A stretch of 3,842 nt of DNA from a virus (lineage: Duplodnaviria > Heunggongvirae > Uroviricota > Caudoviricetes), in the IMG/VR virus record IMGVR_UViG_2663762948_000004. The stretch is one strand, 5' to 3'. This document shows positions 2,548-3,842 of this stretch, one piece after another. Positions within the stretch are counted from its first letter, which is position 1. Every line of letters starts with the position of its first letter. Below the pieces are notes generated by a model. It was not told where the DNA came from. It searched no databases and saw nothing but the letters and a program-made list of their open reading frames with translations. The translations under genes were made by a program, and so were the position numbers.

Positions 2548-2632
2548 CTTTCTCCTGTTCTTTGTGCTGATTGAGCATTTCTTTCATCTGACGAATGAAT
2601 TCTTCGTCTGACCAGTTATCTGTAAAACTCAT
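2525..2632 (-). CDS. hypothetical highly acidic peptide, 35 aa
   Basis: ATG at 2632..2630 overlaps the TGA of the upstream 50-aa ORF (ATGA), suggesting translational coupling; its own SD is poor (AGGAA directly abutting the ATG). Product MSFTDNWSDEEFIRQMKEMLNQHKEQEKDDDSDSE, 12 acidic against 4 basic residues. Its 3' end overlaps the 103-aa ORF start by 23 nt. Confidence 0.25.
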   Translation of the reverse strand: MSFTDNWSDEEFIRQMKEMLNQHKEQEKDDDSDSE

Positions 2633-2781
2633 TTCCTGCGATACCACGGAAGGTTGATAGCTGATTTCATCGCTTTATTTGCTTCAAGCCACATTTTTGA
2701 ATCAACAATAAATCGGGCTATTACTGCTTTGTTCTGTGCAGCACGAAGCATCTGGTGATTAATGGCTATTTCATTGCGCAT
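2629..2781 (-). CDS. hypothetical basic small protein, 50 aa
   Basis: ATG at 2781..2779 with GGAG 5 nt upstream; overlaps the 3' end of the 44-aa ORF by 16 nt. Product MRNEIAINHQMLRAAQNKAVIARFIVDSKMWLEANKAMKSAINLPWYRRK. Below the ORF-track cutoff; no family recognised. Confidence 0.3.
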   Translation of the reverse strand: MRNEIAINHQMLRAAQNKAVIARFIVDSKMWLEANKAMKSAINLPWYRRK

Positions 2782-2963: not shown

Positions 2964-2988
2964 AAAAAAGGCCCTCACATTGGAGGGC
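2964..2988 (-). terminator. putative Rho-independent terminator on the minus strand
   Basis: Minus-strand reading GCCCTC-caatgt-GAGGGC-c-TTTTTT: a 6-bp stem with 5 G:C pairs (plus 2971-2976 pairing 2983-2988), a 6-nt loop, then a T6 tract (plus 2964-2969). It lies in the 183-bp gap between the 62-aa gene stop and the 44-aa ORF start. Confidence 0.5.
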
Positions 2989-3050
2989 AAAGAAGATTTC
3001 CAATAATCAGAACAAGTCGGCTCCTGTTTAGTTACGAGCGACATTGCTCC

Positions 3051-3078
3051 GTGTATTCACTCGTTGGAATGAATACAC
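3051..3078. repeat. perfect 9-bp inverted repeat GTGTATTCA-N10-TGAATACAC (candidate operator or RNA hairpin)
   Basis: Plus 3051-3059 is the exact reverse complement of 3070-3078. It sits 5 nt downstream of the 62-aa gene stop, and a boxA-like CGCTCGTAA (minus strand, plus 3032-3040) lies just beyond it on the transcript. Confidence 0.5.
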
Positions 3079-3083
3079 AGTGC

Positions 3084-3272
3084 TTATTCGTCATGCATTT
3101 CAGGTAATTCTTCGTATTCGACTCCCCATACGAGTTTACACCAAGTGACTCGCTCATATCTTTTACAAAAATCAGACCACATAACTTGTGTTCCATCATG
3201 GTTTGTTATTACTTCTGTAATATCACCAACACTAACAAAACTGGTATTAGAAGCAGTTATTTTTACTTTCAT
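3084..3272 (-). CDS. hypothetical small protein, 62 aa
   Basis: ORF-track ORF; ATG at 3272..3270 overlaps the TAA of the upstream 98-aa gene by 1 nt (TAATG), with GGGGA 6 nt upstream. No family recognised. Confidence 0.5.
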   Translation of the reverse strand: MKVKITASNTSFVSVGDITEVITNHDGTQVMWSDFCKRYERVTWCKLVWGVEYEELPEMHDE

Positions 3273-3568
3273 TACTTATCCCCAAGAGCTTTTCTGATTG
3301 CTGCGATACCTTTATTAACAGCTCCATACCATTCTGGATATGTTGTCGTTGTTCTATTTTTGGTTTGCTTAAGTAATAACTGAAGTGCTTCGAGAAGGTC
3401 AGGCGCTGCCGCTATTAGATTGGCATCTTCAATGCATTGAACTTCCTCACAGATTGCAATATACGAACGCCAGCCAGTGCCATTTTCAAGAGAGTCTGCC
3501 TGGATGATTTTAATCTCATCGCCATCCATCATTATTTCCCACTTACCTTCAGTACCTTTAAATTCCAT
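3272..3568 (-). CDS. Ead/Ea22-like prophage protein (tentative), 98 aa
   Basis: ORF-track ORF; ATG at 3568..3566 with GAGG 5 nt upstream. The motif ANLIAAAPDLLEALQ matches my recollection of the conserved A-N-x-R-LIAAAPELLEAL region of enterobacterial prophage Ead/Ea22-like proteins. The assignment is from memory only. Confidence 0.5.
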   Translation of the reverse strand: MEFKGTEGKWEIMMDGDEIKIIQADSLENGTGWRSYIAICEEVQCIEDANLIAAAPDLLEALQLLLKQTKNRTTTTYPEWYGAVNKGIAAIRKALGDK

Positions 3569-3620
3569 GTTAGCCTCTGTTGTTTATGCCAAAAATAAAG
3601 GCCACCGTCAGGCAGCCTTG

Positions 3621-3842
3621 TGAATCGCCACGGATAATCTAGACACTTCCGAGCCGTTGATAATACTGGTTTTCATATTCTGTCGGTGACATCTGTTCGC
3701 TAGAACCATGCCGACGCTTACTGTTATAAAACATTTCGATGTAATCAAAAATATCACTGCGGGCTTCTTCCCGCGTTCCGTAGATCTTTTTCTTTATCCG
3801 TTCACGTTTCAACAACTGGAAAAAACTTTCTGCAACCGCATT
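3621..3842 (-). mobile_element. IS3-family insertion sequence, right-end portion (partial; terminus placed approximately)
   Basis: Contains the transposase 3' end. The terminus is inferred at about plus 3619-3622, where TGTGAATCGCCACGG begins with the 5'-TG typical of IS3-family ends and resembles IS3-group terminal repeats as I recall them. It must lie right of 3580 because the 98-aa gene RBS and start are at 3566-3580. Confidence 0.5.
3639..3842 (-). CDS. IS3-family transposase OrfB (DDE integrase catalytic domain), C-terminal 67 aa; 5' end outside the window
   Basis: Minus-strand frame open to the window edge, TAG at 3641..3639. Translation NAVAESFFQLLKRERIKKKIYGTREEARSDIFDYIEMFYNSKRRHGSSEQMSPTEYENQYYQRLGSV carries the IS3-family signature around the third catalytic acidic residue (N-A-x-x-E-S-F-F with a basic residue 7 positions later) and the F-Y-N-x-x-R-x-H tail. 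Confidence 0.8.
   Translation of the reverse strand, partial: NAVAESFFQLLKRERIKKKIYGTREEARSDIFDYIEMFYNSKRRHGSSEQMSPTEYENQYYQRLGSV

Follow-up and report, generated by a model that had tools for sequence, protein, structure and literature searches.

An IS3-family insertion at the end of ral in a lambdoid prophage of Escherichia coli

Introduction

In classical lambda genetics, N-modified RNA polymerase reportedly suppresses the polarity of IS insertions, as described by Adhya, Gottesman and de Crombrugghe in 1974. In the classical polar insertions in lambda pL operons the IS lies between pL-nutL-N and the distal genes, and this is also the arrangement at the locus described here. The gene interrupted in the present case, ral, is dispensable for lambda growth. 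Another component of the operon is LPR1/PreS, a recently described Hfq-dependent sRNA of lambda that has tL2a as its 3′ end (bioRxiv 10.1101/2024.10.31.621285). Among named insertion sequences, the nearest to the element found here is ISEhe3, of which Shigella phage SfIV (KC814930) carries a copy with the same length of 1229 bp.

We analysed a stretch of 3,842 nucleotides from an IMG/VR virus record (IMGVR_UViG_2663762948_000004), referred to below as the window. It is the reverse complement of the last 3842 bases of contig LIVB01000004.1 (“contig 4”) from E. coli assembly GCA_001419895.1. The window belongs to a lambdoid prophage that is integrated next to sbcB in this assembly, and it ends in an IS3-family element.

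Results

The end of the IS element in the window

The sequence that starts with TGAATCGCCACGG at window position 3621 is the right end of an IS3-family element, which occupies 3621-3842 on the minus strand. Eight other copies in unrelated flanking DNA (L002, L013, L016, L017, L018, L019, L020 and L021) were aligned; similarity among them begins exactly at the T of window position 3621 and all eight diverge at that base, which places the IS terminus at 3620/3621. An earlier note on this DNA, made from the sequence alone, had put the terminus at about 3620, and the alignment bears this out, with 3569-3620 being native phage DNA rather than IS-internal sequence.

Positions 3621-3842 are identical (222/222) to the IRR side of the full-length copies L019, L020 and L021, which are 1229 bp long, start with TG and end with CA. 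From 3621 onward (TGAATCGCCACGGATAATCTAGACAC...), hundreds of loci on E. coli chromosomes and enterobacterial plasmids with the annotation “IS3 family transposase” have the same sequence at 100% identity, and this variant of the element is spread on plasmids of Klebsiella, Enterobacter, Citrobacter, Salmonella and E. coli. Both the window and the contig it comes from stop inside the IS, i.e., the contig break falls within a repeated element.

The part of orfB that is visible in the window comprises 67 codons (3842-3642, minus strand) followed by a TAG stop codon at 3641-3639, and it matches the Pfam domains rve_2 (E = 7e-16) and rve_3. As this frame is on the minus strand, which is the strand of all the phage genes, the transposase and the phage genes are co-directional, in agreement with the earlier reading that transposase and prophage operon run the same way. 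On the plus strand of the IRR, at 3640-3667, there is a promoter-like TAGACA-16-AATACT that points into the IS, antisense to orfB, and occurs in all copies.

The features around the insertion are as follows, listed from the IS toward the PreS region.

3621..3842, minus strand: right end of the IS, 222 bp of a 1229-bp ISEhe3-like IS3-family element, with the IRR and the last 67 orfB codons
3621-3633: perfect 13 terminal bases of the IRR; matches further in are imperfect
3618..3620, minus strand: one copy of the target duplication, which reads CAA (minus strand) or TTG (plus strand); its counterpart is at the IRL junction on LIVB01000049.1
3608..3620, minus strand: 3′ remnant of ral, from alignment with IS-free prophages and lambda ral; TGA at 3610-3608
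3591..3619, minus strand: intrinsic-terminator-like hairpin in native phage DNA, from a terminator scan and folding
3569..3590, minus strand: leader of the 98-aa gene, native phage DNA conserved in all relatives, with a Shine-Dalgarno-like AGAGG at 3578-3574
3272..3568, minus strand: 98-aa gene of the Phage_P22_Y8K6 family (PF27050 in precomputed annotation)
3084..3272, minus strand: 62-aa gene, function not assigned; usually, though not always, follows the 98-aa gene as its partner
2964..3083, minus strand: LPR1/PreS sRNA homologue, 97.5% identical to lambda 33,926-34,045, downstream of the IS and in the same operon

Family membership and name of the element

The two-ORF and frameshift features were read in L019, a full-length copy with the same 222 bp on its IRR side, since the corresponding part of the IS is unassembled in the source genome. 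Its orfA (92 aa) matches HTH_Tnp_1 (1.7e-19), and a slippery run, A AAA AAA G, at position ~302 is followed by orfB in the -1 frame; RefSeq annotates a “programmed frameshift” on the IS. The full-length OrfB matches rve (1.5e-33) and the IS3 family transposase model NF033516 transpos_IS3 (8.6e-108, 360.9 bits compared with a cutoff of 160). The terminal inverted repeats, IRL TGAATCGCCACGGGTTTAACAGACAC and IRR TGAATCGCCACGGATAATCTAGACAC, match at 13/13 terminal positions and have TG...CA ends. The IRR is inside the window, and the IRL is at the end of contig LIVB01000049.1. Direct repeats of 3 bp surround three other full-length copies (GCA, GAG and GTA). With a DDE transposase carrying rve, an orfA/orfB arrangement with frameshift, TG...CA repeats and a 3-bp duplication, the element is a member of the IS3 family. 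The earlier note had assigned it to this family, and both the rve_2 match in the window and the NF033516 match of OrfB in copies with the identical end support that assignment.

The ISEhe3 copy of SfIV and the element described here agree in their outermost 11-13 bases (TGAATCGCCAC.G), in having TG...CA ends and in the arrangement of orfA and orfB. We refer to the element as ISEhe3-like because this nearest named relative is only 202/222 (91%) identical over the visible part. Isoforms of a named element are defined by ~95% nucleotide identity to its ISfinder reference; the comparison here is with the copy annotated as ISEhe3 in SfIV. A conserved E. coli chromosomal copy was dropped as a naming reference, as it is a chimera with an IS911-type left end. 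Such a chimeric element, 1247 bp in length, is conserved on many E. coli chromosomes (L002 3001-4247, also L014 and L015). Its right end and the 3′ part of its orfB are ISEhe3-like, with the same sequence as in the window, and the opposite end is an IRL of the IS911 type. SLATT-domain and nucleotide-binding genes are its neighbours, with qatD nearby.

The interrupted gene is ral

IS-free relatives, which number in the thousands among E. coli prophages, align with the window as far as position 3621; beyond it they have phage DNA instead of the IS. Homology ends one base beyond the junction because the first base of the IS matches by chance. In these relatives the gene usually found 39 bp upstream of the 98-aa gene is ral (66 aa, PF11058), and upstream of ral are a small ORF, N, nutL, pL and then the cI repressor gene. 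All that is left of ral in the window is its final 13 nt (C AAG GCT GCC TGA, encoding ..(N)KAA and the stop codon), and from this we place the IS inside ral, 10 nt before the stop codon and between codons 63 and 64 of 66. This remnant is identical to the ral end in IS-free prophages such as L004 and matches that of lambda at 12/13 positions. The insertion changes the C-terminus of Ral from ...QNNKAA to ...QNNNESPRV, with the last three residues lost and six gained. The interrupted gene on the other side of the IS (see below) matches PF11058 and is positioned after N, and its fusion protein (P0075) falls in the Ral cluster.

The junction between ral and the IS was spanned by 0/5,426 complete E. 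coli genomes, and we found no phage record that spans it. Exact junction strings had no match in GTDB representative genomes (50-mer and 22-mer) or in JGI metagenome contigs (30-mer).

The reciprocal junction and the target duplication

A simple insertion with a 3-bp duplication predicts a far junction that reads ...AAT AAC AA/T GAA TCG CCA CGG GTT TAA, where the slash is the boundary between phage and IS. The 69-aa Ral-IS fusion protein predicted from this is KQI93627.1 / WP_057696226.1. The protein is not a cluster representative in the homology search and was recovered by exact-sequence look-up, which gave one occurrence on one 28,068-bp contig. This contig, LIVB01000049.1 (L025, “contig 49”), is from the same assembly, GCA_001419895.1, and breaks off 77 bp into the IRL. 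In a collection of ~15 billion proteins, the 50-aa Kil sequence of the window (2629-2781, minus strand) has an exact match on one contig only, LIVB01000004.1.

The IRL-side junction on contig 49 reads ...AATAACAA/TGAATCGCCACGGG and the IRR-side junction in the window reads ...GGCGATTCA/CAAGGCTGCC. The target-site duplication is CAA (3 bp) and is perfect at both junctions. When the flanks are joined minus one CAA they give a 397-bp empty site, and three prophages without the IS, L004, L007 and L012, contain this sequence exactly. Because removing the IS restores this site exactly, the event was a simple insertion with no deletion. Comparison with IS-free prophages, which the earlier note had proposed, has yielded the interrupted gene, ral, and, together with the reciprocal junction, the target duplication, CAA. 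The two junction contigs are separate in this short-read draft, and we infer that they are adjacent across one intact 1229-bp IS. The approach has a wider use, in that the reciprocal junction of a contig ending in an IS can be recovered through an exact-sequence look-up of the predicted fusion ORF.

Prophage genes on both sides of the IS

Upstream of the IS, contig 49 encodes, in order, the interrupted ral (ral′), a 74-aa ORF, a 14-bp terminator-like hairpin and N (an N_peptide gene, PF25694, at 9373-9645). These are followed by a nutL-like site, a pL-like promoter, cI (238 aa, S24 peptidase type), cro, cII, O, DnaB, the nin genes and Q. The nutL-like site, at ~9290-9318, has a boxA-like TGCTCTTT and a boxB-like hairpin GCCCCTCAGTTCGAGGGGC. 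The pL-like promoter (TTTACA-17-TATTCT, 8946-8974) has overlapping palindromes related to those of the cro-cI spacer. Both assignments come from reading the sequence and a simple scan. With N, a putative nutL and a putative pL, contig 49 has the components expected of an N-antiterminated pL operon. The earlier note had suggested that the insertion cut the operon off from its native promoter and upstream regulators, and the presence of ral′, N, the nutL-like and pL-like sites, cI and cro through Q on this contig speaks against that.

Downstream of the IS, contig 4 carries the 98-aa and 62-aa genes, the PreS homologue, cIII, kil, a 103-aa ORF and recT, and further on a Gp157-family gene, a 104-aa ORF, a DUF2737 gene, an AlpA-like xis candidate, int and the host sbcB. 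All substantial ORFs of the window are on the minus strand, and each has the length found in relatives, or is within 1-2 codons of it. We therefore see no sign in these reading frames of a decayed or cryptic prophage. The suggestion that the prophage is cryptic or remodelled does not fit with these ORF lengths, the CAA duplication and the exact empty site.

The prophage of E. coli ET151 has ~2 kb of extra DNA relative to the window (~193-351), apparently located between the DUF2737 gene and the AlpA-like xis candidate, and it includes Ead/Ea22 and dATP/dGTP pyrophosphohydrolase-domain genes. This difference could be mosaic variation or a deletion in the prophage of the window.

The 98-aa gene and the PreS region

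The ATG of the 98-aa gene is at 3568 and the IS terminus is at 3620/3621, so the gap between them (3569-3620) is exactly 52 bp, the value that the earlier note had given as approximate. The exact 98-aa protein was found on 234 contigs, and the contexts among the matches listed are all IS-free. The earlier note took this to be the first prophage gene. IS-free relatives have ral, N, nutL and pL upstream of it and, judged by this gene order, it is a mid-operon gene, the first intact one after the IS without being the first of the operon.

Together the 98-aa and 62-aa genes (3084-3575) form a cassette that is absent from lambda and lies between the hairpin at the ral stop codon and the PreS region. 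In lambda, ...GGCATAAATAACAGA leads to the PreS region after only ~9 nt. A terminator scan located the tL2a-like hairpin of the PreS homologue at 2988-2971. There is no Rfam family for LPR1/PreS, and an Rfam scan of the window returned nothing relevant (the single sub-threshold match, to mir-15, is due to chance). A second terminator-like hairpin, AACGCTTCACTCGAGGCGTT followed by TTCGTT, is found on the minus strand at 2933-2952, ~20 nt past the tL2a-like one and just before cIII.

A hairpin overlaps the ral stop codon

The DNA between the IS and the 98-aa gene includes a hairpin with a 9-bp stem, AAGGCUGCC/GGUGGCCUU (3619-3598, minus strand), in which 3619-3611 pair with 3606-3598 by 5 G-C pairs and 2 G-U pairs among the 9. 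The UGAC loop (3610-3607) holds the ral stop codon, and the stem is followed by a UAUUUUU tail (3597-3591). The predicted folding energy is -13.2 kcal/mol (z = -2.47), and 4/200 shuffled sequences fold as well. The earlier note had recognized a hairpin with a T-tract here and called it weak; its presence is confirmed, and the 9-bp stem and folding energy indicate that it is stronger than described. With a GC-rich stem-loop and a U-tract, the hairpin looks like an intrinsic terminator. We found no report in the literature of transcription termination at this hairpin.

Among IS-free relatives with ral, the hairpin is identical or almost identical in sequence. In prophages of the mEp043 (L023) and E7476 (L024) types another gene takes the place of ral, and a short way ahead of their 98-aa genes a different stem, GGCCG-CAUAGU-CGGCC, precedes the same UUUAUUUUU (as DNA, GGCCG-CATAGT-CGGCC, then TTTATTTTTGGCAT). 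The occurrence of a different stem before the same T-tract argues for a conserved stem-loop function. Support for such a function is moderate, as lambda (-4.3 kcal/mol) and L005 (-2.5) have degenerate versions of the stem. The ral-type copies are nearly identical and provide no covariation support, which leaves the alternative mEp043/E7476 stem. Because the Ral coding sequence can partly explain the near-identity among relatives, this conservation does no more than suggest selection for terminator function. The break in homology between the ral-type and the mEp043/E7476-type prophages is located inside the hairpin, around window position 3603.

Promoter-like sequences in the IS

Scans of the whole IS and of its last 222 bp returned no outward promoter with at least 9/12 matches and a spacer of 16-18 nt. 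A looser scan of the outward strand returned TTCACA-19-TTTATT, which spans the junction, and CCGACA-15-TATTAT, located 40-65 bp inside the IS. In the inward direction, a weak promoter-like TTAACA-17-TAAGAT is located in the IRL and directed toward orfA; the IRL is the usual position of the transposase promoter in IS3-family elements. Given that the IS has the orientation of the operon, the IRL promoter and orfA/orfB are co-directional with pL. In total, 1229 bp of foreign DNA separate pL from the downstream genes.

Discussion

In combination, the results favour a recent insertion into ral without deletion that would be nearly neutral for the prophage, with N-dependent readthrough on induction, and we give this explanation as a whole a probability of about 0.85. 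The event looks strain-specific and recent, given the 100% identity between the IS end and plasmid copies, the undamaged ORFs and a junction that other genomes lack.

The following course of transcription would be expected. In the lysogen, cI should repress pL, and the only upstream transcription entering the 98-aa gene would come from the IS. Unmodified transcripts leaving the IS would meet the hairpin and its U-tract within 1-30 nt and should stop there. With few unmodified transcripts in the lysogen, and these stopping at a native hairpin, the insertion should be near neutral. On induction, polymerase that starts at pL and is N-modified at nutL would resist both intrinsic and Rho-dependent terminators. 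It should then cross the IS and the hairpin into the 98-aa gene, the PreS-like sRNA, cIII, kil, recT, xis and int, with distal expression perhaps at a reduced level. Such readthrough of the IS and the hairpin is expected from the relief of IS-insertion polarity by N in the classical work. Induction would also raise the level of IS transposase mRNA. If the insertion is polar instead, int and xis would be poorly expressed from pL and excision on induction would be poor.

Other explanations were weighed against this one. The IS could have severed the early-left genes from pL, perhaps with loss of the immunity region, leaving a decapitated, cryptic prophage in which the 98-aa gene is now the first. 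In favour of this, phage DNA is missing from the window past the IS, deletions in defective prophages are often bordered by IS elements, and 1229 bp of poorly translated DNA could be polar. However, the reciprocal CAA junction and a complete ral′-N-pL-cI-cro-cII-O-DnaB-nin-Q region are in the same assembly, the empty site is exact in three IS-free prophages and the ORF lengths match those of relatives. Moreover, int and an xis candidate are present and N antitermination is expected to overcome polarity, all of which makes a severed operon highly improbable. A related scenario is that later recombination between IS copies moved or inverted one side and so unlinked the early-left genes from pL. 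IS-mediated inversions are common, and both contigs end in the IS, which the assembler could not resolve at either contig end, suggesting that the genome holds more than one copy. We found no positive evidence for such a rearrangement, and int-sbcB on one side with immunity, replication and Q on the other are the expected halves of one prophage; we thus regard it as very unlikely.

Least probable, in our view, is that a promoter at the IS end, either complete or a hybrid of an IS -35 and a flanking -10, drives the 98-aa gene and the genes beyond it constitutively in the lysogen. The earlier note had raised both an outward promoter and readthrough from the IS as possible sources of downstream expression. 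Complete outward promoters have been estimated to occur in at least 26% of 706 IS3-family elements (PMC12095673), and our looser scan did return the junction-spanning and the IS-internal candidates. Both have poor spacing or hexamers, and the stricter scan (at least 9/12, 16-18 nt) gave 0 outward sites, so that the proposed IS-end promoter lacks a good candidate. Both candidates are also upstream of, or overlap, the hairpin and T-tract, which transcripts would have to cross without N modification, and the same native hairpin would oppose unmodified readthrough from the IS.

Insertion into ral has happened elsewhere. We identified other IS3-family insertions in this gene, one IS911-like (L027) and two IS629-like (L028 and P0032), all in sense orientation (L027 3001-4480; L028 3001-3288; proteins P0008, P0013 and P0032). 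They are 12-15 nt (L027) and ~35 nt (L028) from the site described here, and P0032 is further upstream in ral. The IS911-like element of L027 has its own 3-4 bp duplication and is within a contiguous 194-kb contig in which the downstream early genes are present, which indicates that such insertions persist. Including the present case, there are four independent ral insertions by three IS species, co-oriented with pL and mostly within the last ~40 nt. It is possible, though unlikely, that the end of ral is a preferred landing site for IS3-family elements, or that N-antiterminated operons are safe harbours in which polarity is suppressed and transposase is co-induced. Were either true, IS mobility would be coupled to prophage induction. 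The recurrence could reflect tolerance rather than targeting, given that ral is a non-essential gene in an antiterminated operon.

For annotation, the consequence is that this should be recorded as a complete lambdoid prophage carrying ral::IS, instead of a truncated or cryptic one, and that the 98-aa gene should not be counted as the start of the operon. Beyond correct annotation the significance is small.

Comparison with known systems

The event is an ordinary one, in which a known kind of IS entered a known gene of a well-understood operon. The other ral insertions involve the same gene and orientation as here, but other IS species, insertion points and prophages. The hairpin at the ral stop codon resembles the lambda tL2 cluster and tL2a in being a stem-loop with a U-tract within an N-antiterminated early-left operon. 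It is just upstream of the PreS homologue, which ends in a tL2a-like hairpin of its own. It is distinct from tL2a, and its counterpart in lambda is degenerate. The classical pL-operon cases and the operon described here both contain terminators that were present before any insertion and that N-modified polymerase ignores. Unlike those cases, this is a natural insertion in the prophage's own operon, for which we infer the relief of polarity by N.
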